DNA of 64,000 nt from Coriobacteriales bacterium. Its GTDB lineage: Bacteria; Actinomycetota; Coriobacteriia; Coriobacteriales; UBA8131. The stretch is taken from assembly GCA_031290175.1 (NCBI GenBank), contig JAITOC010000009.1:10285-74284 (forward strand), in the 5' to 3' direction. Numbering within the stretch: the first letter of the stretch is position 1; every line of letters begins with the position of its first letter. The notes beneath the pieces are model-generated. The model saw nothing but the letters and a program-made list of their open reading frames with translations, had not been told where the DNA came from and ran no database searches. Made by a program: the position numbers and the translations under genes. Of this stretch, positions 14,353-42,133 are shown piece by piece.

Positions 14353-14362
14353 GGCAACGGAA

Positions 14363-14992: not shown

Positions 14993-15034
14993 CGTATTTC
15001 CGCGTTGCGCGGGCAATAGCTCGTTGCCACACGT

Positions 15035-17265: not shown

Positions 17266-17718
17266 CTACTCCTTGTTCGCCAACTCATCTTTGGCTGCTT
17301 TCGCAGCCTTGGCGGCGGCTATGCGAGCCTCCTTCTCTCTGGCGGCGATCTCTTGAGCAGCTTTGTCCTCGGGTGAAAGTTCGGGCTTCGTAATAGAGCG
17401 TGAGCACTTCTCGGTGCTTGCGCCGGTATACTGGGGCAACATCGTGAGACAGTCCTTTGGGCAGGTACGAATGCAGGAGTAGCACTGGATGCAGGCAAAG
17501 GGATCGATGATCCAGGTCTCAGCGGGCTTATCCACTGTTATGGCAAGCGAGGGACACTTCTTCTCGCAGATACCACAAAGAATGCAGACCTCGATGTCGT
17601 TTACTACATGCCCTTTGGTCATGGGTGTAAAAGTAGGTGCTATCACGGGATACATCTTGGTGGCCGGCTTCTTGAACAGATTGCGTAACGACATCTTAGT
17701 GAGATGGAAACTTCCCAT
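17266..17718 (-). CDS. echF: Ech hydrogenase 2x[4Fe-4S] ferredoxin-like subunit (NuoI/HycF-like)
   Basis: 150 aa with two CxxCxxCxxxCP motifs (CILCGICEKKCP, CIQCYSCIRTCP) and a Lys/Ala-rich C-terminal tail. Confidence 0.85.
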   Translation of the reverse strand: MGSFHLTKMSLRNLFKKPATKMYPVIAPTFTPMTKGHVVNDIEVCILCGICEKKCPSLAITVDKPAETWIIDPFACIQCYSCIRTCPKDCLTMLPQYTGASTEKCSRSITKPELSPEDKAAQEIAAREKEARIAAAKAAKAAKDELANKE

Positions 17719-17732
17719 GATCCTTTCACTCC

Positions 17733-18821
17733 CTATCGTTCGGTACAGCTGATACAGGGGTCGATAGTTAATACGTTGAGCGGGACGTCTGCGAGGTCAC
17801 AGCCTTGCAGGGTCTTCGTCATTCCAGCGATGTTCTGTGAAGTGGGGGTGCGGATGCGGAAGCGTTCAAGATACTTTGTGCCATTTCCTTTAGCATAATA
17901 GAAGCATTCTCCACGCGGTTGCTCAAGGCGTGAAACGGCAATGGAGTCAGCTCCTGGCGCCCCTTTGACAGACGTCATAAGGGGTGTGTCTGGTATCTTG
18001 TCCACAAGCTCGGCGATAATATCCATCGATTGCAGCACCTCACGGGCACGCACTTCGCAACGGGCATAGCCATCACCGCGCTTGGAGGTGATGGGCTCAA
18101 AAGAGGCGAGCGCGCTGTAGCCGCCATACCCGTAGCTGCGGATGTCCTCCTCGACACCGGACGCGCGCGCAAAAGGCCCCACGATGCAGAGATCCTGGGC
18201 TTCCTCTTTACTGAGGTAACCCACGCCACCCAGGCGGTTTTGAACCGAGCGATCTCTGAAGAATGTCTTTGACAACTCACCGAACTCGCCACGCATGCCA
18301 TCGAGCACGCGCACGATACCGCGCAGATCCTCGTCAAAAATGTCCTGGTTGACCCCACCTACATTGCAGGCAGAGAGTATGACGCGGCCACCGGTAGTCG
18401 CCTCAAAGATGTCGAGTACGCGCTCGCGCAAACGCCAGCACTGCATGAATAAGTTCTCATAGCCAAAACCGTCCGCAAGCAGACCGAGCCAGAGCAGATG
18501 GCTGTGAACACGCGAGAGTTCGTGCCATATTACGCGCAGGAACTCGGCGCGGCGAGGGACCTCGATACTCATGAGAACCTCGATGGTCTGTGAGTAGCCG
18601 AGGCTGTGCCCGAAGCTACAGATACCGCAGATGCGCTCCGTTACCGCGACAAAGGCCGTGTAATCCTTTTTCTGCACGAGCTTCTCAAGGCCACGGTGGA
18701 CAAATCCGAGTTGCGGGATCGCCTCGATGACCTTCTCGTCCTCGATGATGAGGTCGAGATGCACCGGCTCGGGCAACACGGGGTGCTGAGGGCCAAAGGG
18801 TATGACGGTTCGCTGTCCCAT
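17733..18821 (-). CDS. echE: Ech-type group-4 [NiFe] hydrogenase large subunit (NuoD-like)
   Basis: 362 aa. Has the N-terminal Ni-binding motif RICGICSFGH and C-terminal DPCISCTER. It ends at that motif, so there is no cleavable extension, as in Ech/Coo enzymes. Confidence 0.9.
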   Translation of the reverse strand: MGQRTVIPFGPQHPVLPEPVHLDLIIEDEKVIEAIPQLGFVHRGLEKLVQKKDYTAFVAVTERICGICSFGHSLGYSQTIEVLMSIEVPRRAEFLRVIWHELSRVHSHLLWLGLLADGFGYENLFMQCWRLRERVLDIFEATTGGRVILSACNVGGVNQDIFDEDLRGIVRVLDGMRGEFGELSKTFFRDRSVQNRLGGVGYLSKEEAQDLCIVGPFARASGVEEDIRSYGYGGYSALASFEPITSKRGDGYARCEVRAREVLQSMDIIAELVDKIPDTPLMTSVKGAPGADSIAVSRLEQPRGECFYYAKGNGTKYLERFRIRTPTSQNIAGMTKTLQGCDLADVPLNVLTIDPCISCTER

Positions 18822-18822
18822 A

Positions 18823-19251
18823 TCACGCTTCCCTTTCCTTGGTGGTAGCAGGTTCGTTCGCGGCTGTTACGGGCTGTGGGTGACCACTTGCTGCTTCTAC
18901 AGCTGCTGCGGAATGTGGGTTCATCGGCGTGGGGATGCTGGTGGCATAGAAGTTGCCGCCAAAGTCGATGGCGATGCCTTTGATCTCCACGCCAAAGAGA
19001 TCATGTGCCTCGTTCTCAAACACAAAAGAGTTGAAGTACAGATCGCTTATCGAGGGAACCTCATCGTCGACTCCTACGCACAGGCGCAGGTTCTCAAAAG
19101 CCTCACCCTGTGAGAACGAGTAAAGGAGCTCGACGCCTGTGTCGATGGTCGATCCGCACACATTCACGAAGCGCCAGCCCTTATCCTTGTAGTCCTGCGT
19201 TTGGGTATGCAGTTGAGGCAGTGCTATGTCAATGAAAACCTGTGGATCCAT
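18823..19251 (-). CDS. echD: Ech hydrogenase small soluble subunit, NuoC-like
   Basis: 142 aa with NuoC/HycE-N-like sequence (FENEAHDLFGV). It occupies the position between the small and large subunit genes. Confidence 0.7.
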   Translation of the reverse strand: MDPQVFIDIALPQLHTQTQDYKDKGWRFVNVCGSTIDTGVELLYSFSQGEAFENLRLCVGVDDEVPSISDLYFNSFVFENEAHDLFGVEIKGIAIDFGGNFYATSIPTPMNPHSAAAVEAASGHPQPVTAANEPATTKEREA

Positions 19252-19260
19252 GGATCTCTC

Positions 19261-19791
19261 CTAACCAATGGTCTCTGCTAGGGCAGAGGCGCGTACGGTT
19301 TGATCGGCTACCATCTTGTCTGCAGCAGTAAGGCGGCTGGGAAGGGATGCTTCCTCAAGGGTGCCGGAGGCCAGGCTGACCCGTTTTTGTTCAAGGACGC
19401 CCAGCCCGACGACGACGGCATCGATGATGGCCTCGGGACGAACAGCACAGCCGGGGGCGTAGACGTCGACGGGAATCGCCTTATCAATGCCACCTAAGGT
19501 GTTATAGCACTCACGAAAGATACCGCCCGTACAGGCGCAGACGCCACAGGCGATGACGACCTTGGGCTCGGGCATCTGCGAATAGATCTGCTGCAAAACG
19601 CTGCCATTGCGCTCATTGACACTACCGGTTACAAGGAAGATATCGGCATGCTTGGGGTTACCGGTGTTGATGATACCAAAGCGCTCGACATCATACAGGG
19701 GTGTGAGGCAAGCGAGCACCTCAATGTCGCAGCCGTTACAACTCGACGCATCGTAATGGATGATCCAGGGTGATTTTGCCGTTGCGGACAT
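19261..19791 (-). CDS. echC: Ech hydrogenase small subunit (NuoB-like, [4Fe-4S])
   Basis: 176 aa with Cys motifs SCNGCDIE, CGVCACTGG and PGCAVRPE, typical of NuoB/HycG. Confidence 0.9.
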   Translation of the reverse strand: MSATAKSPWIIHYDASSCNGCDIEVLACLTPLYDVERFGIINTGNPKHADIFLVTGSVNERNGSVLQQIYSQMPEPKVVIACGVCACTGGIFRECYNTLGGIDKAIPVDVYAPGCAVRPEAIIDAVVVGLGVLEQKRVSLASGTLEEASLPSRLTAADKMVADQTVRASALAETIG

Positions 19792-19800
19792 GCGCGTCTC

Positions 19801-20673
19801 CTAACCAAGCCAGTACAGCAAGACGATGTTAAGTGAGCAGCACACGAGCGTAACCACCCATGACCACTTGAGCATCGACTGCCACTTAACACGAGCAAAG
19901 TTGTTATCGATGAATACCTCGAGGAAATAGACCGCGCTGATACCGATGATTGCGGGAATGAGAGCAAACCAACTCCCCCACACGAGGAACAACCCCACCC
20001 AACCGAGGAACAGGATGCTCTCGTACCAGTGCATGACCTCCACCATCGCCAGCGTACGACCACTCATCTCAGTCGTGATGCCCTTGACGAGCTCCTGGTG
20101 TGCATGGTGCGAGTAGCTGAGGTCGAAGGGCGACTTCCGCAATTTGATGGTGAGGATAAAGAGCAGTCCGACGAACACGAGCGGCAGAGAGAGGATGAGC
20201 GGCCGGTCAAGGCTGAACACCACACCTGTATCGAAGGTGCGCAGCGCGAAGTAGAACGCGATGGAGATGAGGATGACCATCGGCTCATAGCTCATGACCT
20301 GGGCGATCTCGCGCTCTGCCCCCAACTCGGCATAGGGCGAACGGGTGGAGTATGCGGCGATGATGAAGAACAGGGTCGACAAGGTGAGCACGAACACCAC
20401 GAGCAGGAAGTTGCCACCCGCGAAGAAGAACGCGCCGGCAAGCACCGCCAATACCAACGACATGCACACATAGAAAGCCTGATAGCTGTTGACCTGTGCG
20501 CTCTGCTTGACGATAAGCTTGCGCACATCGTACCAGGGCTGCAACAACGGCGGCCCAACTCTGCCCTGTAGTCGCGCGGTGAGTTTGCGGTCGATACCCG
20601 CCAGGAGACATCCGATGACGGGAGCAAGGACGCCAAAGCCGACGAGGGAGAAAACAAACGACAGACCCGTCAC
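19801..20673 (-). CDS. echB: Ech hydrogenase integral membrane subunit (NuoH/HycD-like)
   Basis: Polytopic protein containing RKLTARLQGRVGPP. I place the start at GTG 20673, which has GGGAGG 6 nt upstream and a GTGA overlap with the echA stop. The track start is 20703. Confidence 0.85.
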   Translation of the reverse strand: MTGLSFVFSLVGFGVLAPVIGCLLAGIDRKLTARLQGRVGPPLLQPWYDVRKLIVKQSAQVNSYQAFYVCMSLVLAVLAGAFFFAGGNFLLVVFVLTLSTLFFIIAAYSTRSPYAELGAEREIAQVMSYEPMVILISIAFYFALRTFDTGVVFSLDRPLILSLPLVFVGLLFILTIKLRKSPFDLSYSHHAHQELVKGITTEMSGRTLAMVEVMHWYESILFLGWVGLFLVWGSWFALIPAIIGISAVYFLEVFIDNNFARVKWQSMLKWSWVVTLVCCSLNIVLLYWLG

Positions 20674-22613
20674 AGTACACCTCCCGTCACCAAAAGTGAG
20701 CATGCAAGCCCGACGGCGATAAGCAGGATGCTTATGATGTTCGCGATGGGTTCGAGGGTTTTCTCACCAAGCCATCCGTCCAGGTACCAGTTGCGCTGCG
20801 TCGTCTGTGTCTCGCCGTTGAGCGAGTTGCGATAAGTGCGCTTCTCGGCATCGAGCGCAACGCCAGCGAGATAGACAGACGCGGTTGGCTTCTTGGGTCG
20901 CGTGAACTGAACGGCGAAGGCAGCGATGAGAGCCAAAACGATGACCGCCATGATGATAAGGTTGTCGAAGTCGATGGTCGCAGAGATACTGCCCCACCAG
21001 ACTGTCGTGCCCGGTAAGATGTCGGCAGCAAAGTGTGCGAGATAGGGCACCACAACAAACTCGGACAGGAAGGGAAACCCGACGCTCAAAAGCAGCACGA
21101 GCGCAGCCATAAGAGCCAGGGAGAACCACTCGGAGGGATGCACGGTCTTCTCGACATCGGGATCCTGCTGTGCAATGGCGAGAACCTTGCCAAGCCATTT
21201 TGCCCAGAACATGAAGGTTGCTGCCGAGCCGAAAGCCAAGATGAAGAGCAGAAGGATATTGTCGGTGTTCACAAGCGAGACGATGGTGGCCCACTTGGAT
21301 ATGAGCATGCCAAAGGGTGCGATGAACATGCAGAGCATCCCGAGTGCCATGAGGCGCGCCAGTATCGGCATACGGACGAAAAGGTTGTCCATGTCCTCAA
21401 TATCGCGGCTGCCAATGTGGTGCTCAGCGGTTCCCACGCACAGGAACAACAACGATTTGGCCGCCGCGTGGAAGATGAGCAGAAAGATGGCTGCCCACAC
21501 CGCCTCGGGTGTCCCCACGCCCGCACACGCGACGATGAGTCCGAGGTTTGCGACGGTGGAGTAGGCAAGCACGCGCTTGGCGTTGCTTTGTGAAACGGCA
21601 AGAAATGAACAGAACAGGAAGGTGAAGCCACCTACAAGGACGACCATTATGCCGTTGTAACTCCAACCAAAGCAGGGAGCCAGCTTGATAAGGAGGAACA
21701 CGCCTGCCTTGACCATCGTGGATGAATGGAGCAGAGCGCTCGTGGGGGTTGGAGCGACCATCGCGCCGAGCAGCCAGGACTGAAAGGGAACCTGCGCTGC
21801 CTTGGTGAAGGCAGCTACCGCCAAAAGCGCCAGGGGGATGACGAGACCCCCCAGTGCGCCTTGTGCAATGAGCTTGTCGAGCTCAAGGATGCCGGAATAG
21901 CCCAGATACACGAGTGCGAGAGCAAAGGCGAGACCGCCTATGAGGTTCATGACGATCTGCCTGAAGGAGTTATCTATCGCCTCCGGGGTGCGCGTGTAGC
22001 CGATGAGCGCGAAGGAGCAGACTGTGGTGACCTCCCAGGCACAGAGCAGCCAAGTAAGGTTGTTGGAGAACACGATGGCGAACATCGCAGAGAGGAACAC
22101 GAACATGAGCGCAAAGAACACAGGCCGACGGTCGGGTTTGTCGTTGTCGTCTTCATGTACCTGGAAGTCGTGCATGTATCCAAGTGCGTAGATGCAGATA
22201 CCGCCGCCGATGACGCCGATGATAAGCGTCATGATAACCGAGAGTCCATCGACATACAGATTGTTCTCTATGGTCATACCATGGGCGATGAGAAGCTCGA
22301 ACGCCACGATGATGACGGTCTGAACCGCGGCAAGAGCGACTGCGAGCGGTTTTTTGTGCCTGATGCCCTTGACGATGATATACGCGCAGCACAAAACGTC
22401 AATCACAAGCGTGAGGATGGTCACCCACTCTCCTTCAAAGGGCGGATACCAGGTTTCACTGAAAAGGTGCCCTACCGCGAGCCACGCTGAAGCAATCATG
22501 ATAGCGGCCGCAGAAACGATCACCACAACCGAACGCGCCCTGTTGTTGCGGACAAGCAGAAGCACACCTGCCGCAACAACAGGAAACACGATGAGAAATG
22601 CTAGGTTAACCAT
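20670..22613 (-). CDS. echA: Ech hydrogenase antiporter-like membrane subunit (NuoL/HyfB-like)
   Basis: About 647 aa and about 16 TM, with NuoL/MnhA-type sequence. ATG 22613 is preceded by GGAAGGGAAG; the track start GTG is at 22619. Confidence 0.85.
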   Translation of the reverse strand: MVNLAFLIVFPVVAAGVLLLVRNNRARSVVVIVSAAAIMIASAWLAVGHLFSETWYPPFEGEWVTILTLVIDVLCCAYIIVKGIRHKKPLAVALAAVQTVIIVAFELLIAHGMTIENNLYVDGLSVIMTLIIGVIGGGICIYALGYMHDFQVHEDDNDKPDRRPVFFALMFVFLSAMFAIVFSNNLTWLLCAWEVTTVCSFALIGYTRTPEAIDNSFRQIVMNLIGGLAFALALVYLGYSGILELDKLIAQGALGGLVIPLALLAVAAFTKAAQVPFQSWLLGAMVAPTPTSALLHSSTMVKAGVFLLIKLAPCFGWSYNGIMVVLVGGFTFLFCSFLAVSQSNAKRVLAYSTVANLGLIVACAGVGTPEAVWAAIFLLIFHAAAKSLLFLCVGTAEHHIGSRDIEDMDNLFVRMPILARLMALGMLCMFIAPFGMLISKWATIVSLVNTDNILLLFILAFGSAATFMFWAKWLGKVLAIAQQDPDVEKTVHPSEWFSLALMAALVLLLSVGFPFLSEFVVVPYLAHFAADILPGTTVWWGSISATIDFDNLIIMAVIVLALIAAFAVQFTRPKKPTASVYLAGVALDAEKRTYRNSLNGETQTTQRNWYLDGWLGEKTLEPIANIISILLIAVGLACSLLVTGGVL

Positions 22614-22646
22614 CCCCACTTCCCTTCCTTGAGCACCGAAAACCCT

Positions 22647-22667
22647 AGCCCCCCATCATGAGGGGCT
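22647..22667 (-). terminator. weak hairpin plus U-tract between the acs and ech modules (possible attenuator or processing site)
   Basis: On the mRNA: AGCCCC-UCAUGAUGG-GGGGCU followed by AGGGUUUUCGG. It lies in the 86-nt gap between the Cys-rich ORF stop and the echA start. Confidence 0.3.
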
Positions 22668-22705
22668 GCAAACAGGGTCTCGCGACAATTTTTCTTCCCT
22701 TGGGA

Positions 22706-22966
22706 TCAGGGATTATTCGATCGCCTCTCCCGCTCCTTGAACAGCTTTTGCATATGCTCATACATCTCATCGCCCACACATTCCCGTGCATACCCGCACC
22801 ACTCCACACAGGTCTGCCGGTCGTTGTAGGCGATAAAGCCACAGGAGCATTTCCGTGACATATCGACCGAAAACAACTCTATCTCCGCACCACACACAGG
22901 ACAAATCTTCTCATCCCAGGTAGGAGTGCCCTTTATGCCAGCAGCGCCGAGACAGCCCTTGAGCAT
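22706..22966 (-). CDS. small Cys-rich zinc-ribbon-like protein, function unknown
   Basis: 86 aa with 9 Cys, including CPVCG...CSCG. Its ATG lies 2 nt after the acsE stop, suggesting translational coupling. Confidence 0.55.
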   Translation of the reverse strand: MLKGCLGAAGIKGTPTWDEKICPVCGAEIELFSVDMSRKCSCGFIAYNDRQTCVEWCGYARECVGDEMYEHMQKLFKERERRSNNP

Positions 22967-22968
22967 AT

Positions 22969-23754
22969 TTACAGCTCGAGGTAGGAATCCGCATACAAGG
23001 TGCGTCCCAAGACGACATTCACCGTTCTAACGACGTCCATAATCTCGGGGGCACCAGGGTCGAGGATGACCGAGCTGAGACCGGCTTCCATCGCCATGGC
23101 AAGAAGAATGCGGTTCACAAGCGGCCTGAGTGCATCGGGCATTCCGTTGGAGGCATTTGAGATGCCGGCTGTGGAGTTCAGGCCCATATCAGTGAGTTGA
23201 CGGATGAACTCAAGGAACTCAAGCTGCTTTTCCTGCATGCCCTTGATAACTAGGGTCAGCGGATCGAACCAGAGATCCTCGGGCTCCATACCTAAGGAAA
23301 GTCCGCGCTCGAGCATGGTCTGACAATACTCCATGCGCTCGTCGTTGTCTTTGGGGACACCAGCCGCGCAGCACAAGGCAATGATGATTGCGTCATTGTC
23401 AGCAGCCAGGTCGATCATGCCGATCCTGTCCCCTGCGTCAGCGGAGTTGATGATAGGCTTGCCCTTTGAGCGGTTATACACAGCAAGACCGGCTTCGATG
23501 GCCTTGGCGTTGACAGTATCAAGGGCGACCGGCACGTTATCGAAGTTCTCCTGCAGGAGCTTGACACCCCACACCATCAATTCCTCGCCATTCTTCGAAG
23601 CGGGACCGATGTTGAGGTCGAGATAGTGGGCACCAGCCGCGAGCTGATCTTTTGCACGTGACAAGATGGGCTCGGGATCCCTGTCGATGAATGCCTGCTT
23701 GACCTCGGGCGACATTATCTGAATACGCTCGCCGAGAATGATGAACTTTTCCAT
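22969..23754 (-). CDS. acsE: methyltetrahydrofolate:corrinoid/iron-sulfur protein methyltransferase (pterin-binding MeTr)
   Basis: 261 aa with a pterin-binding TIM-barrel sequence (LDLNIGP, INSA, AGISNASNGMP). It sits directly downstream of acsC/acsD. Confidence 0.88.
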   Translation of the reverse strand: MEKFIILGERIQIMSPEVKQAFIDRDPEPILSRAKDQLAAGAHYLDLNIGPASKNGEELMVWGVKLLQENFDNVPVALDTVNAKAIEAGLAVYNRSKGKPIINSADAGDRIGMIDLAADNDAIIIALCCAAGVPKDNDERMEYCQTMLERGLSLGMEPEDLWFDPLTLVIKGMQEKQLEFLEFIRQLTDMGLNSTAGISNASNGMPDALRPLVNRILLAMAMEAGLSSVILDPGAPEIMDVVRTVNVVLGRTLYADSYLEL

Positions 23755-23842
23755 TGCTTTCCTCCATTCTGTCCGGAGTCTTAGATCCGGACATCAGTGT
23801 CTCCTGACCTCCCTTTTGAGATCTGGAGAAAATACCAGTGTC

Positions 23843-25174
23843 CTAGGCGACAAACTCCTTGAGGAACTTGGGCAACCCGATGGCCTCGTTGGGCGCGATG
23901 ACAATCTTCCATCCGGGAAGGTTCTCCTCTAGCTCGCCCTTGAGAACGGATATCTTGCCAGGAACCATAAGGGTGTGGTTCTTGACCTTTGCCTCAAGAC
24001 CCTCATCCTTGATGAACTTTGCGATGGAGTCAGCGGTCAACTTGCCCGCGGACCACGCAGTCAGTACGGAATACCCACCCGCATCGGGGATGATGAGGTT
24101 GACCGGAACACCAGAACGCTCGATCTCACCACTGATGATGAAGTAGGTGAGCGCGAAGTCTACGGTGAACGCGCAGGGGTCGTTCTCGCCTGCACCGTTG
24201 ATTGGATAGAGGCCTGTTTCGACCGTCATCGGCTTCTGGGGATCGGTAAAGACGTTCTGTCGCAGGCCATAGAGCCCGAGCGCCTTGCCATAATCCATCT
24301 TCTCAAGAATGATGATGGAACCATACTTTGAGGTGAAGAGTGACGCGAGAGCCGTCTGCAGGCGCTCGTCACCCGGGGCGAGCTTGGCAACATTGACGAT
24401 AGAAGGATACCCGAAGCTGCGGTCATTATCCTTCAGAGCCGCACGTCTGATCTTCACGGCATTGCCGAACGCGTCCTTGATCGATGCGCCGCCCACGTCG
24501 AGGACGAGTTCCTTGTTGCCTAGACCCTCCAGCGCGGTGACCGTGGTATAGAGGGCATCGAGATCCTCTGCCCTGACCCCGAGAACCACGCCATACTCCT
24601 TGGCAAGCGCGTTACAGGCCTCGTAATTGGACGGGTTGGCACCGTTGAGGATCGGTTTGGTATCTTTGACGAGGTCGAGAGCTGCCTTTGCAGCGTCCCC
24701 GTCCTGCACATCGAGCACCAGCGTCCTGCCCGTTGCAGCAGCCTTTTTGACCGCGCTCAAAAACGCGCTCTTATCGCCCTCAAAGGCGACGTTAACCAGC
24801 TCGACATACATATGCTCTCCGATGCGCACGTAGTCGACCTTTGCTGCTTCTGCTAAAACCTCATCCGCGTTTGCATCGGTAACCGACACGCCGTAGAGGC
24901 TCTTGGACACGAAGGTCTTGTCATGACGGAACAGTACCGTCTCGCCACCTATCGTGTGCTCTTCTTCGCCGACACCAATCTTGATGCTCTTCATCGGCGG
25001 CGCTGTCGCTTCTCCGAGTGTTGCGAGGGCTTCTTCTGACATATGAGGGCACTGTTCGATTTGCACCGAGCCCTGAGCGACCTTCATCGAAAACGCCATG
25101 CAGGTTGGTTGGCCGCATTCCTTGCAATTGGTCTTAGGTGTAAGTTTGAAAATATCAAGTCCCTTAAGAGCCAT
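23843..25174 (-). CDS. acsC: corrinoid iron-sulfur protein large subunit
   Basis: 443 aa with the N-terminal [4Fe-4S] motif TNCKECGQPTCMAFSMKVAQG and family-typical length. Confidence 0.92.
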   Translation of the reverse strand: MALKGLDIFKLTPKTNCKECGQPTCMAFSMKVAQGSVQIEQCPHMSEEALATLGEATAPPMKSIKIGVGEEEHTIGGETVLFRHDKTFVSKSLYGVSVTDANADEVLAEAAKVDYVRIGEHMYVELVNVAFEGDKSAFLSAVKKAAATGRTLVLDVQDGDAAKAALDLVKDTKPILNGANPSNYEACNALAKEYGVVLGVRAEDLDALYTTVTALEGLGNKELVLDVGGASIKDAFGNAVKIRRAALKDNDRSFGYPSIVNVAKLAPGDERLQTALASLFTSKYGSIIILEKMDYGKALGLYGLRQNVFTDPQKPMTVETGLYPINGAGENDPCAFTVDFALTYFIISGEIERSGVPVNLIIPDAGGYSVLTAWSAGKLTADSIAKFIKDEGLEAKVKNHTLMVPGKISVLKGELEENLPGWKIVIAPNEAIGLPKFLKEFVA

Positions 25175-25206
25175 GGTAATATGCTCCTTTCTTTGTCTCT
25201 GGCGTC

Positions 25207-26151
25207 TTATACCAGTTCGGCGATCAGCTTTGAAACCGTAGCGACGGAAGCCGGGTGCATGAGTATGACTGCATTGGATCCTGCGGCGATGCTGGCTACG
25301 GCAGTGGAGACCTCCAGGCCGATGCCACGCTCCTCACGAGAACCCCACTCGGGTATCTCTTCTTCCGTGGCAAGGGATTCCTTTACGGTCCAGGCCTCGG
25401 TGCTGATTGGCGAGATGACCGGTATCTGGAGCGCGGCGTCATTCTGCGTCAATGCGGCCAGCTTGACGCGCTCTACCGTAGAGATGATGTACTCGAAGCC
25501 GTACCCAACAACACCCTGTCCAAGGTTCTCAACAAGGTTCTCATTCTTGATACCCAGTTGAGAAAAGAGCACATTAAGCTGTTTTGCAAGGTTGATATCG
25601 ACCGCCGACTCTCCGGAGACCTTCTGGCCATACGCAGTCACAGCCGCAACGGCGATGCCTTTGTAGTTCTCCTCTTTCGCGTTGAGCAACAGGGCGTTCT
25701 TGCCCTGCAGCGCCTCGGCTACCTTGGGGAGAAGCTCGGCGTCTTTGTCGATGTTGTTGCTTCCCGTGACCACGAGTGGCAATGAGATGGCATCGGCCAC
25801 CTCTTTTACCTTCGCGACCGAATCGGCGACCGACTCGTTGTCTCCGTTGGGATCTGACCCGGCGAGCCTGAACGCAACAAACTGCACACCGGGAACCTGT
25901 TCCGCCTTCTTCGCGAGCTCGGCCAGTGTCTCAGCACCTTCGTACGCTGCGGCGACACCCGGCAGACTCCTGTCGGGACCCTGGTCGGAGAACTCGATCC
26001 CAACAGCAGGGGGGTTCTTGACCGCCCCGTCAAAGCTGTATAGAGACCAGACATTCTCGCCACCCAGGGTAAGCGCCTTCTCACCGGTTCCTAGCACGGT
26101 TTCACCAATCGATGAAGAAAACACCTGGGGGTTATGCTTAAATGGCATCAT
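25207..26151 (-). CDS. acsD: corrinoid iron-sulfur protein small subunit
   Basis: 314 aa TIM-barrel-type sequence, located between acsB and acsC. Confidence 0.88.
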   Translation of the reverse strand: MMPFKHNPQVFSSSIGETVLGTGEKALTLGGENVWSLYSFDGAVKNPPAVGIEFSDQGPDRSLPGVAAAYEGAETLAELAKKAEQVPGVQFVAFRLAGSDPNGDNESVADSVAKVKEVADAISLPLVVTGSNNIDKDAELLPKVAEALQGKNALLLNAKEENYKGIAVAAVTAYGQKVSGESAVDINLAKQLNVLFSQLGIKNENLVENLGQGVVGYGFEYIISTVERVKLAALTQNDAALQIPVISPISTEAWTVKESLATEEEIPEWGSREERGIGLEVSTAVASIAAGSNAVILMHPASVATVSKLIAELV

Positions 26152-26275
26152 TCTCTCCTTTCAAACCTTCATTACATTCCATGTGCATTGCAAAGTAGAC
26201 ATCCCCATACCTCTTCCGGCAAAGCGAACGACCATTCACCTCCTCCTTGATCCTTCTTCGAGACAAACGCAGCTA

Positions 26276-28405
26276 TCAGAACAAAGGCTCCATACTGAGT
26301 ACGGGATGCCCTTTTTCACTGAGATGGTTCATCAGAACCTCAGGATCATCGGTGATCGTCTCGTCGCCGATCATATCGACGTAGTTATCGATGCCGTAAA
26401 GCTCTTTGGCAGTGGCGTTGAGCTTGGGAGCCACAAGCTCCTTGAGGGCCTTGGGCATCCAGACGATCCTGGCGGGGCCTCCCTCGGCACGCATGAACTT
26501 CTTGGAGGCGATGAAGTGCTTGCCGTGCCCCATGAAGCCCGGTGTCTGCACACCACCACCGGTCATCGATGCCATCTCAGAGAAGGACATGCCCAGAGGG
26601 GTGATGCCTGTGTGTTCGCGGTTTACGATAACGACGCCGTTGCTGTAGGTCTCGATGCCGCAAATGCACTCGAAACAGCCGCAGCTGGTCATCGGGTCGA
26701 CCATGATGGAGTACAGCGTGACCTGCTGGAGGTTGCCGTGCGATTGCGCGGCGACATTCTCGTTGACGTCCTCCCAGATCCCGACATGCTCATCCACTAC
26801 GCGCTCCTTGGTGACCACCTGGCAGGCACCGTTGGGGTCGAGCTGATTCATCGCCTTGGCATCCAGCCAAGACACAGCCCCGCAAAGTCCCAGGCGCTCG
26901 GGAGTGACGATACAGACATGCGCAGGCGAGAAGGATTGGCAGAGGATGCAGTTGTAGAAGACATCGACGGTCTCGTCGGTCATCGATGCAAGGCGCGCAT
27001 CGCGGGTATCGAAGACCTTGTTTATCTCCGTACGAAGCTCCTTGAGGTCTTCTGACTTCGTGTATATCTTGACCTGGCACTTGTCAATGAGAGCCTCGTA
27101 CTCACTTTTGATTTTGGCGTAGACAATCTCACCGATGTGCCTGAGACGGAAGCCCGCATTGAAGGCGTCCTTGCTGATGCGGATGCGGATGAGGTCGCGC
27201 TGCCCGGTATGCATGATGCCCTCAGCACAGTTGATGAAGTTGTGGAAGTTGCGCTCTATGACCGGCTCAAAGTCAGTGAGCATGTTCTTACCAGCAACCT
27301 CAGCAACGATACCGAGACCCACGCGCTCGCCCTCCTCAAAATCCTCCACATCGGGTCCGATTATCTCGATGGCATGATCCTCTATCTCGTGTATCTCGCG
27401 CATCCGTACCCACTCAAGGGAGTCGAAGCGGCTTCCATCGAAGTCGATGCGCGTGGCATCCCTCCTGACGATCTCGCCCTCGAAAGCAGATGAATAGGAG
27501 ACGGGTATATCGACCTTGGTGATCTTGAGCTTGATATCACGAGCCTCAAGTGAAGTCTCGATGAAGTCCTTCGTATCCGGTTGGATGATGATGCTCTTGG
27601 GTACCGGCCACATATCCTTGGGGTCGTCGGTGATGACCGGGAATCCCATCGCTATGGCACCTGCGCCACAGGAGACGACGAGGTCACTCACGGGGTCGAA
27701 GGCATTGACGAAGGCGTGGATGCGCCAGAACGTATAGTCATCAAAGTCCCAACGTTCACCAGGTTGGACAGCACCAAAGATCATAGCGGCTCTGTTGACG
27801 AAGGAGATGATATGCGCAACCTGCCAGACATCGGGCCCTACGGCTACGACGCGCACCGGGAAGCCCATGTTCATATTGAGACGTCGCGCCTGCGCGATAA
27901 CCTCACCGAGAAGGAATACGAATATGCCGCGAGCCTGATAGCCCTTAATGAGCTCAAGCGCCTCCTCATCCGTCGGTGCCTTGCCGTGGATAACGACGAA
28001 ACCGGGTATGTCATTGGTGACGAGCGGCACACCCAGCTCACGCACCTCGGCATCCGAGAGATGCCCGTGGTACTCACCGTTGTAAGGGTCGTCACTTTTG
28101 GCGTACTTGCAAGCTTCTATGACTTCTGCGGCAGCGAAGGTCGCGTAGCCGGTCTTGAAGACAGATCCCAGGTCGGGCTCATGGATATTCCAGGTCTTGT
28201 CTTCCTCGAATGCCGCCCTGAGATCCTTGAGACTCATAATCTGACGCTTGAAATACGTAAGGTGGTTCGCGAGATGATAGGCTGTATTGGGCATACTGAC
28301 GGGAGCGTTCTCGCCGAGTTCCGCAATGGTTTCATCGAGCGCCTTCTGCGCCAGGGCAAACATCTCGTCCGCTCCGTCAAACACCCTGTCGAATAATTTC
28401 TTCAT
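26276..28405 (-). CDS. acsB: acetyl-CoA synthase (CODH/ACS A-cluster subunit)
   Basis: 709 aa. Aligns along its whole length with my recollection of Moorella AcsB. A-cluster ligand motifs CILCQSFSPAHVCIVTPERLGLCGA and MTSCGCFECI are present. Confidence 0.96.
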   Translation of the reverse strand: MKKLFDRVFDGADEMFALAQKALDETIAELGENAPVSMPNTAYHLANHLTYFKRQIMSLKDLRAAFEEDKTWNIHEPDLGSVFKTGYATFAAAEVIEACKYAKSDDPYNGEYHGHLSDAEVRELGVPLVTNDIPGFVVIHGKAPTDEEALELIKGYQARGIFVFLLGEVIAQARRLNMNMGFPVRVVAVGPDVWQVAHIISFVNRAAMIFGAVQPGERWDFDDYTFWRIHAFVNAFDPVSDLVVSCGAGAIAMGFPVITDDPKDMWPVPKSIIIQPDTKDFIETSLEARDIKLKITKVDIPVSYSSAFEGEIVRRDATRIDFDGSRFDSLEWVRMREIHEIEDHAIEIIGPDVEDFEEGERVGLGIVAEVAGKNMLTDFEPVIERNFHNFINCAEGIMHTGQRDLIRIRISKDAFNAGFRLRHIGEIVYAKIKSEYEALIDKCQVKIYTKSEDLKELRTEINKVFDTRDARLASMTDETVDVFYNCILCQSFSPAHVCIVTPERLGLCGAVSWLDAKAMNQLDPNGACQVVTKERVVDEHVGIWEDVNENVAAQSHGNLQQVTLYSIMVDPMTSCGCFECICGIETYSNGVVIVNREHTGITPLGMSFSEMASMTGGGVQTPGFMGHGKHFIASKKFMRAEGGPARIVWMPKALKELVAPKLNATAKELYGIDNYVDMIGDETITDDPEVLMNHLSEKGHPVLSMEPLF

Positions 28406-28435
28406 CCGTTGGTCCCTTCCCGATGTCCCGCCACC

Positions 28436-29218
28436 CTAATGGGTTGCATAGCTATCGATTTTCTCCTTGATGAAATTGATTTCTTTCTGTATGGCCTCGC
28501 TGGTATCCAAAGCAGATACCTCCCGCTTGTCTGACTCGATCGCATCATCCGTATAGCGTATGAATCCGAGGATATCTTCTCCCCACAACCGCTCCCTCAG
28601 GTAGTCCTCGTCGGCGGTGCTCCGCACCTTGTTCCCGACGATGCTCACCCGGGTGATACCGAGGTCGGCGGCCAACTGCTTGATCTTGTGATAGGTCTGT
28701 ATGCTCCGTGTGCCCGGCTCGACGACAACGATGAAGCGGTCGACCATATCGGCCGTCCCTCGCCCCAGATGCTCGAGGCCAGCTTCCATGTCCATGATGA
28801 CCACATCGTCACGGTTGAGCACCAGGTGCGAGATGATGCGCTTGAGCATCACATGCTCAGGGCACACGCAGCCCCCTCCCCCGCTCTCGACCGTTCCCAT
28901 GAGAAGAAGCTTGACGCCATTCTTAGCGACCGCAAACCGATCGGGTATGTCATCGACCCGAGGGTTTATCTTGAAGAACCTGCCGTAACCCGCACTGTCG
29001 CTGCCCGTCCGCTCATTGATGAGGTCGTTCATCTTCGAGATCGGAGTGATGGCCAGAACCTCTTCCTCGGTGAATCCCAGTGCAAGACCCAGATTGGCAT
29101 CGGGGTCAGCGTCCACAGCCAGGACGGTCCTGCCCTCACGCGCATAGAGCCCTGCCAGTACGGAGGCCAGCGTGGTCTTGCCGACCCCTCCTTTACCTGT
29201 GACTGCTATCTTCAACAT
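28436..29218 (-). CDS. cooC: CooC/AcsF-type nickel-insertion ATPase
   Basis: 260 aa with deviant Walker A GKGGVGKTT and the CxC metal motif (CVC). Confidence 0.9.
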   Translation of the reverse strand: MLKIAVTGKGGVGKTTLASVLAGLYAREGRTVLAVDADPDANLGLALGFTEEEVLAITPISKMNDLINERTGSDSAGYGRFFKINPRVDDIPDRFAVAKNGVKLLLMGTVESGGGGCVCPEHVMLKRIISHLVLNRDDVVIMDMEAGLEHLGRGTADMVDRFIVVVEPGTRSIQTYHKIKQLAADLGITRVSIVGNKVRSTADEDYLRERLWGEDILGFIRYTDDAIESDKREVSALDTSEAIQKEINFIKEKIDSYATH

Positions 29219-29283
29219 ACACCTCCCCGGAAACCTCTCATGTCGACCTCTCTCCTGGCAATGACTTCCTTAAGGCTCATGCG

Positions 29284-31179
29284 CTAGATGCCGAGGAGAT
29301 CACGCTTCTTCTCGATTCCAGCGATTATTGCCTGGACGAGTTCATCCGGGTCGGTATTGATGTTGTAGCCGGCACCGGATATCTTCCGGGTTCCCTCAGT
29401 AATCAGCTGCATCATCTGCTCGCTCCCCTTGACCTGAGGCTCGATTCCCAGATAGGTGTCGATCCCTGTGGCGACGACATAATTCGCGATAGCGACGGCC
29501 TTCTCGCTCATCCACTCGGGCGCACATCCGACGACGGGGATGGAGGTGATGGGGACTTCCCATTGTTCGGCTATATCCGAGGCCAGCAGCATCATGCGGC
29601 TGATATCCACACAGGCTCCCATATGCAGGATTGGAGGGATACCGACAAGCGTGCAGACCCTCTTGAGTCCGTCGCCGCAGACCTCTTTTGCCGCTTTACT
29701 CATAAGGCCCGCCTTTGTGGCCGCCTGCGCCGCGCAACCCGTCGTGATAACGAGGATGTCGTGCTCCAGAAGTCGCCTCATGATCTCGATGTGGGAGTAA
29801 TCAGGACGAACCTTGGGGTTGTTACAACCCACCATGGCGACCGCGCCGCGCAGGACACCCGATTTGATCGCGTCGATAACCGGACGATAGGATCCTCGCT
29901 CTTCGACATGGCTGTTGGTGACTCCATCGAGCTCCTTGATGATCTGCTCATTGGGATAACCGACCGTCGCGTTCTCCTTGCTGGTGGGTATCCAGGCTCT
30001 GCTCTCATCACGATTTGCAAAGTTGTCGATGGCGTCTTTGACAATCTGCTTTGCCTGCTCCAGAGCCGTCTCGGGCACAAACTTGATATACTCGGAGCCG
30101 GGTATCCGGCAGATGGGAGAGGTCGTCACAAACCGGGTATGGAAGCACTCGGTCAAAGGGCCGAGCGAAGGGAAGATGCACTGCACATCGACACACATCA
30201 TATCGACCACACCAGTGAGCACCACATTCTCCTGCTGAAGGAAGTTCCCTACCATGCGTACACCGTGGCGCATGGCAACCTCGTTCGCGGTACAGCAGAG
30301 ACCTACAAGATTGATCCCCTTGATACCCTTGCTCTTGCAGTAACTCTGGAGCTCTGGCAGGTCGGCAACCGTAACCACCATCTCTGAGAAGGCGGGGTCG
30401 TGACCGTGTACGACGATATTGACCATATCCTTTTCCAGCACACCGAGATTACCTTCGGTGTCGCGCGCGGTGGGCGTCCCAAACATGATGTCGGTGAAAT
30501 CGGTGCCGATCATCGATCCGCCCCACCCATCGGCCATGCCAACGCGAAGGCTCTGACGAACCAGCACCTCGGCATCCGCCGTATTGCCCATATGGCTCAT
30601 GTGGAGTGAAGACGATATCTCTCGGTCAATCGCACGTGGCGCTATCTCCTCGCGCTCCCAGAGTTCTTGGCGCTCCTTTGTGGCTCGCTTGAGAAGAACC
30701 TGGGTGCCAAAGGGCTTCCCAAACTCATTGAGGGCGAACAGGGCGACATCATGGGCGACATCATAGACATCGCGATCTTCAAAGGCGATGTCCCATTCCG
30801 TTGCGACCCTCTTGAGCTTTGCCTCATCACGGATGATATAGGGACCTTCGGGCTTTGTTGCAAGGAGGGTGTGTGCTATCTCGCGCGCGTGGTCTGAATG
30901 AGCCGCTGAACCCGCTGCCGCCATGCGGAGGTAGTGCCGCCCCGCGATGGTATGGGCGTCCGCGCCACATATCCCGCGTGGAGCTTTGGCCGTGATGCGG
31001 CAAGGCCCCATGGAGCATATCCTGCAGCAGATGCCTTCCTCGCCGAACTTGCAGTGCGGAGTCTGCTTCTCGTTGCGGTCAGCCCAGGTCTCCGTACACG
31101 CCTCGCAGGCAAGTTCATGCAGTTTTGCGGTATCGGCTTCCATCTGTTCAATGGTGGTGAAGTTCAATTCCGGTTTCAA
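29284..31179 (-). CDS. acsA: anaerobic carbon monoxide dehydrogenase catalytic subunit
   Basis: 631 aa. Has the N-terminal cluster motif CKFGEEGICCRICSMGPCRI and length typical of CooS/AcsA. Confidence 0.95.
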   Translation of the reverse strand: MKPELNFTTIEQMEADTAKLHELACEACTETWADRNEKQTPHCKFGEEGICCRICSMGPCRITAKAPRGICGADAHTIAGRHYLRMAAAGSAAHSDHAREIAHTLLATKPEGPYIIRDEAKLKRVATEWDIAFEDRDVYDVAHDVALFALNEFGKPFGTQVLLKRATKERQELWEREEIAPRAIDREISSSLHMSHMGNTADAEVLVRQSLRVGMADGWGGSMIGTDFTDIMFGTPTARDTEGNLGVLEKDMVNIVVHGHDPAFSEMVVTVADLPELQSYCKSKGIKGINLVGLCCTANEVAMRHGVRMVGNFLQQENVVLTGVVDMMCVDVQCIFPSLGPLTECFHTRFVTTSPICRIPGSEYIKFVPETALEQAKQIVKDAIDNFANRDESRAWIPTSKENATVGYPNEQIIKELDGVTNSHVEERGSYRPVIDAIKSGVLRGAVAMVGCNNPKVRPDYSHIEIMRRLLEHDILVITTGCAAQAATKAGLMSKAAKEVCGDGLKRVCTLVGIPPILHMGACVDISRMMLLASDIAEQWEVPITSIPVVGCAPEWMSEKAVAIANYVVATGIDTYLGIEPQVKGSEQMMQLITEGTRKISGAGYNINTDPDELVQAIIAGIEKKRDLLGI

Positions 31180-31215
31180 GATCTCTCCTTTCCAAATCAG
31201 TCCTCTGTGTGTCGC

Positions 31216-31986
31216 CTAGACGATTATCCGAGACAGAATCTCCTCGAAGGCAATCCGGGCAGATGAATCAACAGGGAGCTGTATGGTTGGCTTCCCCTCA
31301 CAGTCAAAGGCGTAGACCAGGGGGTCTGCCGGGACGATCCCCGCAAAATCGAAGCCCTGGAACTCGATCTCCTCGGCCGTCCCTGGATCCAATACCCCAT
31401 CTGGTGCCCTGTTAACAATGAGCTTCATGGCACTGGGTTTCAATGCAAGCTCGTTGACCAACTCTTGGATGCGCGCAGCCGCCTGTATGCCTCGGCGCGA
31501 ACAGTCGGACACGAGGATGACCATATCGATCGCAGGCAAAGTGCCTCTGCTGATATGCTCCATTCCTGCCTCGTTATCGACAATGAGATAGCGATAGCTG
31601 TCGACGTATTTTCTGATACGCCCCTGTAGCAGATCATTGACGAAGCAGTAGCAGCCCTTACCCTGCGTCCGACCCATGACGATCAGGTCATAGTCGTCTT
31701 CTTCGATAAGGGTTCTGCCAAAGTAGGCATCGAGGTAGTCCTGCTTCGACATTGAAGCAGGAATGGGATCCTCCGTGTCGAAGTCCGCATTCGCGATCTT
31801 CTCGCGGAGGTCACCTAAGGTGTAATCGACCTTGACACCGAGCACCTCGTTGAGGTTGGAGTTCGCATCGGCGTCCACTACGAGCACGGGCTTCTTCCCT
31901 ACCCGTGTGAGATAGTCAACCAGCAGCCCCGTCAATGTTGTTTTGCCGGTTCCACCCTTACCTGCGACGGCGATGATATAGGCCAT
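31216..31986 (-). CDS. cooC: CooC-type nickel-insertion ATPase (second copy)
   Basis: 256 aa with GKGGTGKTT and the CxC motif (CYC). Confidence 0.9.
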   Translation of the reverse strand: MAYIIAVAGKGGTGKTTLTGLLVDYLTRVGKKPVLVVDADANSNLNEVLGVKVDYTLGDLREKIANADFDTEDPIPASMSKQDYLDAYFGRTLIEEDDYDLIVMGRTQGKGCYCFVNDLLQGRIRKYVDSYRYLIVDNEAGMEHISRGTLPAIDMVILVSDCSRRGIQAAARIQELVNELALKPSAMKLIVNRAPDGVLDPGTAEEIEFQGFDFAGIVPADPLVYAFDCEGKPTIQLPVDSSARIAFEEILSRIIV

Positions 31987-31988
31987 AG

Positions 31989-32789
31989 TCAGTTCTGTCC
32001 AAAAAGGCCCTCACGGAATGCCTCAAGATAGTTCATGCAGTATTCATCGTTGCCGAGAAGCGCATCGACGGCGTGCATGGTCGCCTGCATGTCGGCAGAC
32101 ATCGGATCCATGATGGCACTGTCCATCCCGGCGGCCATCGCAAGCGCGAGGAACTGGGTGTTGAGCGCCTTGCGATAGGGCATACCGAAGGATATGTTGC
32201 TCAGACCGGAGGTGATGTGCACGTCCGGGAATGCTGCCTTTATCAAACGAACTGCCTGGTTGAATCCCACCAGTGAGTCACCCTTGGTAGCAAGGGTCGT
32301 AACCAGAGGATCGATGAGCAGGTTATCGTGGGGAATCCCATTCTGATCCGCGAGTGCGACGATCTTTTTTGCGATCTCGAACTTGACCTGTGGATCCTCC
32401 GGTATTCCGTTGTCATCGCAGGTAAGAGCGACAACCTTCCAGTTGGTGCCAGCAATAGCGGGAAGGACGATCTCGCATTTGCCTGATTCGAGCGAGATGG
32501 AATTGATGAGACCCTCTTTGTTGGCCCGTGGAATCATGTCGACTATGACCTGGGGGTCTGAGCTGTCGATACACAGAGGGGTGTCGACGGTACCCTGAAC
32601 AAGATCGATGAGCCACTCCATGGTTTCGTGCTCGATGGCGGGCTCCACGCCGGCGCAGACGTCGATGTACGAAGCTCTGCCTGCAGCCTGTTTGGTCGCG
32701 AGCTCCTTGATGTACTTCTCGTCGTGCGCCTTGATGGCCTCAAGCGTCTTGGGGATGAACCCGTTTATCTTCTCGCCGATGATTATCAT
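31989..32789 (-). CDS. pterin-binding methyltetrahydrofolate:corrinoid methyltransferase paralog (candidate MT2)
   Basis: Begins MIIIGEKINGF and contains SGLSNISFGMPYR and LAMAAGMDSAI. ATG 32789 is preceded by GAAGGAGGA; the track start is 32834. It is the first gene of the acs cluster. Confidence 0.85.
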   Translation of the reverse strand: MIIIGEKINGFIPKTLEAIKAHDEKYIKELATKQAAGRASYIDVCAGVEPAIEHETMEWLIDLVQGTVDTPLCIDSSDPQVIVDMIPRANKEGLINSISLESGKCEIVLPAIAGTNWKVVALTCDDNGIPEDPQVKFEIAKKIVALADQNGIPHDNLLIDPLVTTLATKGDSLVGFNQAVRLIKAAFPDVHITSGLSNISFGMPYRKALNTQFLALAMAAGMDSAIMDPMSADMQATMHAVDALLGNDEYCMNYLEAFREGLFGQN

Positions 32790-33042: not shown

Positions 33043-33363
33043 ATGCACACTGAATCAGGACACACTTCACATCCACACGAGCATTCGCACGCACATATCC
33101 ATGAGCATTCACATGAGCACCCCTGTGATAACCTGCACACCCATCAGCATCCCGTGGGACAGAATGAGACCAGCGCGCTGCTGGGATATCTCATCGAGCA
33201 CAACACGCAGCACACCGACGAGCTGCTCACCCTTGCCGGCGATGCACAACAGAACGGATTGGTCGAGGTAGCAAAACGCATCGAAGCCGGTGCGACGCTC
33301 TACCGATCAGGCACCGAGGAGCTGGTCAAAGCACACGCACTCCTAAGAAAGGCGACAGTATAA
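33043..33363 (+). CDS. histidine-rich putative Ni/Co-binding protein (CooJ-like role inferred)
   Basis: 106 aa from ATG 33043, preceded by AAAGGAGAA. The N-terminal 40 residues are about 40 percent His (HPHEHSHAHIHEHSHEH), followed by a helical C-terminal domain. TAATG overlap with cooT. Confidence 0.6.
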   Translation: MHTESGHTSHPHEHSHAHIHEHSHEHPCDNLHTHQHPVGQNETSALLGYLIEHNTQHTDELLTLAGDAQQNGLVEVAKRIEAGATLYRSGTEELVKAHALLRKATV

Positions 33364-35725: not shown

Positions 35726-35738
35726 TCTCGCTACACTT

Positions 35739-42074: not shown

Positions 42075-42133
42075 GGTGAGCTCAGACTCGTCACTCCAGT
42101 ACGATACACTTAAGCCCCGAAGAAAGGAAAGCC

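Follow-up and report, generated by a model that had tools for sequence, protein, structure and literature searches.

How does an organism that builds acetyl-CoA from CO2 obtain the very low-potential electrons that the reduction of CO2 to CO demands, and can the answer be read from the order of its genes? The question is raised by a 64,000-nucleotide stretch of DNA (hereafter the window) from a metagenome-assembled genome (MAG) of a Coriobacteriales bacterium. Between positions 17266 and 32789, 15 co-directional genes on the minus strand encode a complete bacterial carbon monoxide dehydrogenase/acetyl-CoA synthase (CODH/ACS) set followed by a six-subunit Ech-type group-4 [NiFe] hydrogenase (Table 1). 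We propose, with moderate confidence and on the basis of gene content and gene order, that the two gene sets (acs and ech) are fused head-to-tail into one functional unit, most likely co-expressed, that would support ferredoxin-coupled, H2-driven methylotrophic acetogenesis.

Two modules in a single cluster

Gene identities were assigned with Pfam and NCBIfam profile searches, using curated family cut-offs where these were available. An earlier, sequence-only reading of the locus had listed 15 minus-strand open reading frames (ORFs), all of which were found at the coordinates it gave. The module identities it offered also hold; AcsA, AcsB, AcsC, AcsD and AcsE each score above their curated cut-offs. 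AcsB carries the CODH_A_N, CdhC and ACS_CODH_B_C domains, and AcsE is identical in sequence to the deposited protein MDR3314994.1. Maturation and activation factors of the bacterial CODH/ACS are present as well, including two CbiA-family ATPases, the activator RACo upstream and CooT in divergent orientation. The ATPases matched generic P-loop models only, and no specific NCBIfam model matched CooC1. The cluster begins with a methyltransferase (MeTr) paralog, the start of which (position 32789) was taken from the Joint Genome Institute (JGI) gene call on the related contig L099. This protein scored merely 107 bits against the AcsE model NF040758 and is probably a methylcorrinoid:tetrahydrofolate (THF) methyltransferase (MT-II); corrinoid-protein genes adjoin its relatives in loci L081-L097.

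The hydrogenase module follows the Ech pattern. Pfam matches on six consecutive ORFs bear out the subunit order claimed by the sequence-only reading, with EchA to EchF being NuoL-, NuoH-, NuoB-, NuoC-, NuoD- and NuoI-like and with one antiporter-like subunit, an order that is identical in relatives L001-L075. The large subunit EchE has the two nickel-binding motifs noted in that reading, RICGICSFGH in its N-terminal part and DPCISCTER at the very end of the protein, without a C-terminal extension. Among solved structures in the PDB it is matched best, in both cases over the full length, by two group-4 enzymes, Mbh (6cfw_L, 239 bits) and the formate hydrogenlyase (FHL) subunit HycE (7z0s_E, 214 bits), in agreement with the group-4 assignment made earlier. 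Matches of complex I NuoD to EchE span residues ~6-281 only, leaving the C-terminal motif region uncovered. The cysteine ligands of EchC are C18/C21, C82/C85/C87 and C116, and the two [4Fe-4S] motifs of EchF are CILCGICEKKCP and CIQCYSCIRTCP. Close relatives of EchE and EchA are labelled 'ech hydrogenase subunit E/A' in source databases; these names and the subunit order suggest a group-4e-like enzyme. The start of echA is most likely the ATG at 22613, which gives a 647-aa product identical to MDR3314992.1 (source name 'ech hydrogenase subunit A'), and that of echB is most likely the GTG at 20673, which overlaps the echA stop codon as GTGA.

GC content and GC content at third codon positions (GC3) are uniform over acs, ech and nearby housekeeping genes. 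A recent gene transfer readable from base composition was rejected on this ground.

The junction between acs and ech

The juxtaposition of the two modules is supported by independent sequence data. The deposited proteins MDR3314994, MDR3314993 and MDR3314992, which correspond to AcsE, a small Cys-rich protein (the Cys ORF) and EchA, follow one another on a contig of 77,472 bp from the Coriobacteriales MAG. Logan contig L100 (run SRR14710898, 2,828 nt), produced by a different assembler, is 100% identical to window positions 24919-22092 and covers acsC, acsE and the Cys ORF and reaches 520 nt into echA. JGI contig L099 (Ga0068302_10013629), from another sample, crosses the junction with 98.8% identity over window positions 33754-22552. 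Because both contigs reproduce the junction, it cannot be regarded as an assembly artefact, and the diverged contigs L101 and L102 share it too. A chimera of assembly or binning is consequently extremely improbable, even though L099 stops 67 nt into echA and the most similar EchE in the homology search, from the same JGI sample, is merely 88% identical; the assembly chimera was rejected as far as the data allow. The ech part may vary at the strain level, given the point at which L099 breaks off.

The spacing of the genes reveals no seam. In gene order, the gaps are 2, 36, 65, 30, 124, 32, 88, 2, 92, -4, 9, 9, 1 and 14 nt, running from a 4-nt overlap to 124 nt as described earlier. At 92 nt, the gap between the Cys ORF and echA is of the size seen within acs, where gaps of 88 and 124 nt occur, and the module border is therefore no unusual break.

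The sequence-only reading had singled out a weak hairpin with a U-tract at 22647-22667 as the only structure between the modules. The hairpin exists, with a 9-bp stem followed 4 nt later by just four U, and yet it is no better than hairpins within acs, that of the acsC-acsE gap folding more stably relative to expectation (z = -2.5 vs -1.3 at the junction). It was not called by the terminator scan, its U-tract reads CTTT instead of TTTT in strain L099 (98.8% identical), and no stem-plus-U-tract equivalent occurs at the junctions of L101, L102 and L103. A functional terminator at this site is not supported, given the lack of a scan call, the z-score and the unconserved U-tract. The junction gap holds no promoter-like site, two promoter-like matches lie within the 5' part of echA, and the acs promoter region and the junction share no operator motif of 8 nt or longer. 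With this layout, co-transcription of acs and ech is plausible.

The Cys ORF itself belongs to an unannotated, zinc-ribbon-like family with 338 representatives at E <= 1e-3, some longer members of which are fused to HD or low-molecular-weight (LMW) phosphatase domains. It occupies the same junction in L102/L103 (63% identity), is reduced to a C-terminal remnant at the junction of L101 (L101 7801-7857) and adjoins RACo in L012. The idea that it represents a free-standing N-terminal domain of DUF3786 was rejected, as there is no similarity.

Conservation of the fused arrangement

The distribution of the arrangement was explored from both of its ends. An EchE-anchored survey with one genome per species yielded 75 loci, mostly from Coriobacteriales MAGs and many of them from termite guts, and the six-gene ech operon was present in all 75. 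The closest relatives of the MAG that carries the window are termite-gut MAGs; the isolate prefixes Emb289, Lab288, Nt197 and Nc150 denote higher-termite samples (PMC7024585, PMC7886697). A related Ech operon occurs in Collinsella ureilytica (L039), and EchA homologues are found in cultured Eggerthella, Adlercreutzia and Enteroscipio.

The AcsE-anchored search revealed three fused lineages, namely the window, L101 (a Coriobacteriales MAG with three contigs in its cluster) and L102/L103. Identities to the window are 82% (AcsB), 72% (AcsE), 69% (EchA) and 81% (EchE) for L101, and 83%, 73%, 65% and 80% for the same proteins of L102/L103. In these three lineages the junction is kept while the flanking genes are wholly different. 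Conserved synteny in two further lineages at 65-83% protein identity thus backs the functional link between acs and ech that the sequence-only reading had suggested. Since L102/L103 keep the Cys ORF and L101 keeps its remnant, the pattern points to a single ancestral acsE-CysORF-echA junction. An AcsE-anchored scan of metagenomes returned only one relative above 35% identity and was uninformative on the junction.

We generated a crude neighbour-joining tree from concatenated EchA, EchB, EchC and EchE sequences (1,458 columns, 100 bootstraps). It groups L012 with L101 (99% bootstrap support), these two with L102 (91%) and the window with L006 (73%); the group of all five, however, received merely 29%.

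The same MAG (prefix LBS98) has a second EchA, P0265 (LBS98_05915), which is 67% identical to that of the window and lies on a 29,287-bp contig outside it. EchE P0052, assumed to be the partner of LBS98_05915 because its contig has the identical length of 29,287 bp, falls in a separate Ech clade with 99% support in the neighbour-joining analysis. Because this apparent second operon belongs to a different clade, the copy linked to acs would appear to be a specialised paralog, provided that binning is right; uncertainty of binning touches this second operon and the taxonomic labels of contigs. A bolder extension, which we consider quite unlikely, is that the acs-linked Ech is a dedicated paralog docked on CODH/ACS in a membrane supercomplex that forms acetyl-CoA from H2, CO2 and a methyl group without free ferredoxin. 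If true, it would define an obligately H2-dependent, methyl-carbonylating acetogenesis without a methyl branch. Bacteria would then have a mirror image of methyl-reducing methanogenesis, and Actinobacteria their first acetogenic lifestyle.

A predicted route from methyl groups and H2 to acetate

In the proposed route, Ech would use the ion-motive force to push electrons from H2 to ferredoxin in the H2-rich termite hindgut, and AcsA would use this low-potential ferredoxin to reduce CO2 to CO. MtaB/MtaC and the MeTr paralog would carry methyl groups from methanol or methoxy compounds as far as methyl-THF, from which AcsE would hand them to the corrinoid iron-sulfur protein (CoFeSP), which RACo would keep active. 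AcsB would then combine methyl, CO and CoA into acetyl-CoA, and acetate formation would yield ATP by substrate-level phosphorylation, which would cover the cost of Ech. The overall equation would be CH3OH + CO2 + H2 -> acetate, that is, H2-dependent methylotrophic acetogenesis. From textbook free energies we estimate ~ -80 kJ/mol for the conversion of methanol, H2 and bicarbonate to acetate, which should be enough to pay for the Ech step. The gene identities, motifs, junction, conserved synteny and methylotrophy context are observed; we infer that the modules are co-transcribed, that ferredoxin is the carrier, which way the electrons flow and what the substrates are.

The H2-uptake, methyl-fed route is favoured because of the gut habitat and the presence of methyl-donor genes. 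Among the options that the sequence-only reading had offered, disposal of reductant during acetate oxidation fares worst, and syntrophic acetate oxidation in an H2-rich gut is unlikely. The neighbouring genes (MtaB/MtaC, RACo2, corrinoid proteins, CooT and a PucR-type regulator) favour the methyl-fed route.

The same unit could also run in the opposite direction, with Ech oxidising reduced ferredoxin, evolving H2 and building an ion gradient, and thus serving as both reductant vent and energy-conserving site. The ferredoxin would be reduced by CODH/ACS (CO oxidation), by methyl-group oxidation (methanol or methoxy disproportionation) or by 2-oxoacid oxidation. In anaerobic bacteria, group-4e enzymes are generally regarded as H2-evolving (PMC6776011), and Thermoanaerobacter kivui requires Ech2 for growth on CO and pyruvate, both of which reduce ferredoxin (PMC10986591). 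Furthermore, the orthologous ech of L006 lies near a 2-oxoacid:ferredoxin oxidoreductase, and two syntrophic acetate oxidisers, Syntrophaceticus and Thermacetogenium, harbour relatives with 52-54% identity. However, the high H2 partial pressure of the hindgut would disfavour H2 evolution and make acetate oxidation infeasible. The genes linked to ech encode the steps in which ferredoxin is spent on CO2 reduction and methyl groups are delivered, and no genes of methyl-branch oxidation are visible within the 64 kb. We therefore regard H2 evolution as a serious alternative that is nevertheless clearly less probable than H2 uptake.

Several observations weigh against the proposed H2-uptake unit. 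The cluster lacks genes for ferredoxin and CooF, Ech can in principle run both ways, and a full Wood-Ljungdahl pathway or methanol disproportionation is possible when judged from the 64-kb window alone. A stable hairpin is present in the acs/ech gap, the distance between the Cys ORF and echA grows to ~240-290 nt in L102/L103, which gives room for an internal promoter, and the apparent second ech copy might result from a binning error. At the loci of other close AcsE relatives, namely L104 (binned as Family XIII, 73%), L105 (70%) and L080 (58%), the acs clusters come without ech. Conversely, the closest Ech relatives of the window, L107 (EchA 83%), L076 (EchE 88%) and L006, are not linked to acs, so that the linkage has been lost or rearranged at least once; no acs pseudogene remnants were found upstream of echA in L012, L107 and L006. 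Finally, acs genes were found upstream of echA in none of the 42 surveyed species-representative loci that have at least 3 kb of upstream sequence, and Ech must consequently work without acs in these relatives.

The two modules might then be neighbours without coupling, ech being an independently transcribed housekeeping operon beside which acs was perhaps transferred. Such a history would fit the stand-alone six-gene operons of the 42 related loci and of the closest relative L107, and the hairpin at the junction, which nevertheless lacks a conserved U-tract. The nearest relatives of AcsE include Family XIII and Treponema MAGs (69-74% identity), which suggests that acs moves between termite-gut lineages; GC and GC3, on the other hand, do not differ between the modules or from nearby housekeeping genes. 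Chance proximity is also difficult to reconcile with three lineages that keep the junction though their flanks differ completely, with the CODH/ACS accessory genes that flank ech on both sides in L101, and with the position of ech after RACo/PucR/CooT in L012. On balance, we find the absence of any coupling improbable.

Reductive acetogenesis supplies much of the termite's carbon and is credited mainly to spirochaetes and a few other groups. The conserved acs-ech operon beside Mta genes points to uncultured Coriobacteriales as further acetate formers, which would be methyl-dependent and H2-powered. The acsE-echA junction would provide a compact genetic marker for finding such organisms, and a natural test case of how cells supply very low-potential electrons for the conversion of CO2 to CO.

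Gene neighbourhood

The cluster is larger than the sequence-only reading had it, with the addition of RACo, DUF3786, a PucR-type regulator, CooT, a His-rich protein, MtaB/MtaC, two corrinoid proteins and a B12 riboswitch (Table 1). Judging by the predicted functions of these genes, it is embedded in a corrinoid-dependent methyl-transfer neighbourhood.

Table 1. Features of the acs-ech cluster and its surroundings, listed by position in the window.
Feature	Position	Strand	Evidence or remarks
Cobalamin riboswitch	15028-15145	-	RF00174, 35.7 bits
Corrinoid protein, B12-binding	16417..17052	-	PF02310 + PF02607; 213 nt downstream of echF
echF, NuoI-like 2x[4Fe-4S] subunit	17266..17718	-	Fer4 family matches
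echE, [NiFe] large subunit	17733..18821	-	PF00346 + PF00374
echD, NuoC-like subunit	18823..19251	-	PF00329, E = 3e-7
echC, NuoB-like small subunit	19261..19791	-	PF01058, E = 4e-30
echB, NuoH-like membrane subunit	19801..20673	-	PF00146, E = 9e-38
echA, NuoL/MrpA-like antiporter subunit	20670..22613	-	Proton_antipo_N + Proton_antipo_M domains
acs/ech junction, including hairpin 22647-22667	22614..22705	-	folding energy -32.9 kcal/mol, z = -1.3
Cys-rich ORF, 86 aa	22706..22966	-	8 Cys, zinc-ribbon-like pattern; no Pfam or NCBIfam match
acsE, methyl-THF:CoFeSP methyltransferase	22969..23754	-	NF040758, 430 bits (cut-off 370)
acsC, CoFeSP large subunit	23843..25174	-	PRK04165, 502 bits (cut-off 306); FeS + CdhD domains
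acsD	25207..26151	-	NF040759, 434 bits (cut-off 430)
acsB, acetyl-CoA synthase	26276..28405	-	NF040764, 976 bits (cut-off 800)
cooC2/acsF-type ATPase	28436..29218	-	CbiA + AAA_31 domains
acsA, Ni-CODH catalytic subunit	29284..31179	-	TIGR01702, 613 bits (cut-off 478); PF03063, E = 1e-166
cooC1, CooC-type Ni-insertion ATPase	31216..31986	-	CbiA + AAA_31 P-loop domains
MeTr paralog, pterin-binding methyltransferase, first gene of cluster	31989..32789	-	PF00809; PRK07535, 336 bits
His-rich DUF8180 protein	33043-33363	+	Pfam on L099; His-rich N-terminus MHTESGHTSHPHEHSHAHIHEHSHEH
CooT, Ni chaperone	33363-33557	+	L099 gene calls + Pfam
PucR-type regulator	33570-35072	-	PF13556
DUF3786 protein	35069-35974, start uncertain	-	PF12654
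RACo, CoFeSP reductive activator	35739-37673	-	RACo_C_ter, Raco_middle and Fer2 domains
RACo2	40560-42074	+	RACo domain
DUF2284 protein	42134-42697	+	DUF2284 domain
MtaB	42800-44176	-	PF12176, E = 8e-153
MtaC-like corrinoid protein	44224-44856	-	B12-binding domain
Second DUF3786 protein	45068-45745	+	DUF3786 domain

Upstream of acs, the genes of the DUF8180 protein and CooT overlap at the start of the latter; they are transcribed divergently from the acs operon, adjoin ech in L012 and L101 too, and are a candidate pair for nickel storage and delivery. A PocR/AraC regulator also lies upstream, co-directional with acs. The Mta gene set (40560-45745) is found ~10 kb upstream of the acs operon, and the predicted parts of a methanol:corrinoid methyltransferase system are all present, namely MtaB, a B12-binding protein, RACo2 and the MeTr paralog (PRK07535). 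Downstream, a promoter-like site (TTGGAA-17-TATAAT at 17210-17182) is placed after echF and before the corrinoid-protein gene, and the riboswitch precedes a DUF4430 gene and an energy-coupling factor (ECF)-type transporter operon (11055-14926), which probably serves B12 uptake, fitting the nearby corrinoid proteins.

Related loci reshuffle these elements. L101 has ech between acs on one side and RACo-DUF3786 on the other. In L012 it follows RACo-CysORF-DUF3786-PucR with the divergent CooT/DUF8180 pair alongside, which is the arrangement of the window minus the acs operon. In L102, a phosphotransacetylase gene comes after ech.

Other contexts were also noted. In L006 (884-5823; UBA1419), the orthologous ech is preceded by genes for subunits of a 2-oxoacid:ferredoxin oxidoreductase, for a cupin-HTH regulator and for a protein resembling acyl-CoA synthetases, so that a different predicted ferredoxin-linked enzyme adjoins Ech. 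Reading of the sequence of L019 (3150-5741; a Coriobacteriales MAG) places after ech a homocysteine S-methyltransferase-like gene, then a 355-aa ORF resembling core (folate-independent) methionine synthase, and after it a homologue of cooC; ech may have a further C1-related neighbourhood here. Within the window, beside the Mta genes, a 767-aa beta-propeller protein (45873-48693, minus strand; PF09826) is encoded directly downstream of, and overlapping, the gene of an extracytoplasmic function (ECF)-type sigma factor, and the two may form a sigma/anti-sigma-like pair. An Rnf complex guessed from ORF sizes at 50.9-56.3 kb was rejected, as the region is a histidine operon.

Comparison with known systems

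Both modules are already known, as are a loose proximity of ech to Wood-Ljungdahl genes and fusions of hydrogenases with the monofunctional CODH CooS. New, as far as the literature searched goes, is the direct and conserved acsE-to-echA fusion in Actinobacteria, a layout that is rare but conserved. The sequence-only reading had allowed that the fusion might prove widespread and already characterised. It is absent from all of the 42 loci described above, and we found no description of it in the literature on Coriobacteriia, the Wood-Ljungdahl pathway, Ech and termites.

One of the closest known systems is archaeal. The Ech of Methanosarcina barkeri supplies reduced ferredoxin to CODH/ACS and to CO2 reduction. 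The hydrogenase of the window resembles this group-4e enzyme in having six subunits (EchABCDEF), a single antiporter-like subunit, both CxxC nickel motifs and no C-terminal extension, and the logic proposed here, in which H2 and an ion gradient would give reduced ferredoxin and hence CO2 reduction, is also that of M. barkeri. To our knowledge, however, the ech and cdh genes of M. barkeri are unlinked, whereas in the actinobacterial window ech is joined to an acs operon of the bacterial type.

The Coo clusters (group 4c) of Rhodospirillum rubrum and Carboxydothermus hydrogenoformans combine a Ni-CODH with a six-subunit energy-converting hydrogenase and Ni chaperones (PMC6344411), and the present locus likewise holds these components in one cluster. 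It differs in that its CODH belongs to a bifunctional CODH/ACS, as the AcsA subunit encoded together with AcsBCDE, while the CODH of Coo clusters is the monofunctional CooS. No CooF and no CooA are found at the locus, and cooC-acsB-acsD-acsC-acsE follow the CODH gene. Its hydrogenase genes are ordered as in Ech (L,H,B,C,D,I) rather than as in Coo (M,K,L,X,U,H; CooMKLXUH), and the predicted role is acetyl-CoA synthesis instead of CO-driven H2 production.

Acetogens with Ech-type hydrogenases provide a precedent (PMC4320612, PMC10986591, PMC10213532), and Ech-dependent acetogenesis and ferredoxin turnover are described for T. kivui (PMC10986591, PMC4320612). As proposed here, the Ech of T. kivui and of Aceticella autotrophica is a membrane coupling site that serves a Wood-Ljungdahl pathway. 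The Wood-Ljungdahl cluster of T. kivui (from TKV_c19930) and ech2 (TKV_c19750-19680) share one chromosomal neighbourhood, and in A. autotrophica acsA is ACETAC_10650 and ech is ACETAC_10680-10720. In contrast to the six-gene ech of the window, however, the Ech of both has 8-9 subunits in other gene orders, several genes separate acs from ech, and ech is not fused to acsE; moreover, the hosts are thermophilic Firmicutes with full methyl branches.

The habitat and the logic of the route are shared with termite-gut Bathyarchaeia, for which Loh et al. (2021; PMC7886697) proposed methylotrophic, H2-assisted acetogenesis. Both proposals combine the termite gut, an external methyl group fed to CODH/ACS, and a group-4 hydrogenase that reduces ferredoxin from H2. 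The bathyarchaeial system, however, is archaeal, with the Cdh complex, an 11-subunit Fpo-like group-4g hydrogenase and no operon fusion, whereas the window brings together the bacterial Acs and a six-subunit Ech in a single co-directional cluster. The route proposed for the Coriobacteriales would thus be the acetogenic counterpart of H2-dependent methyl-reducing methanogenesis.

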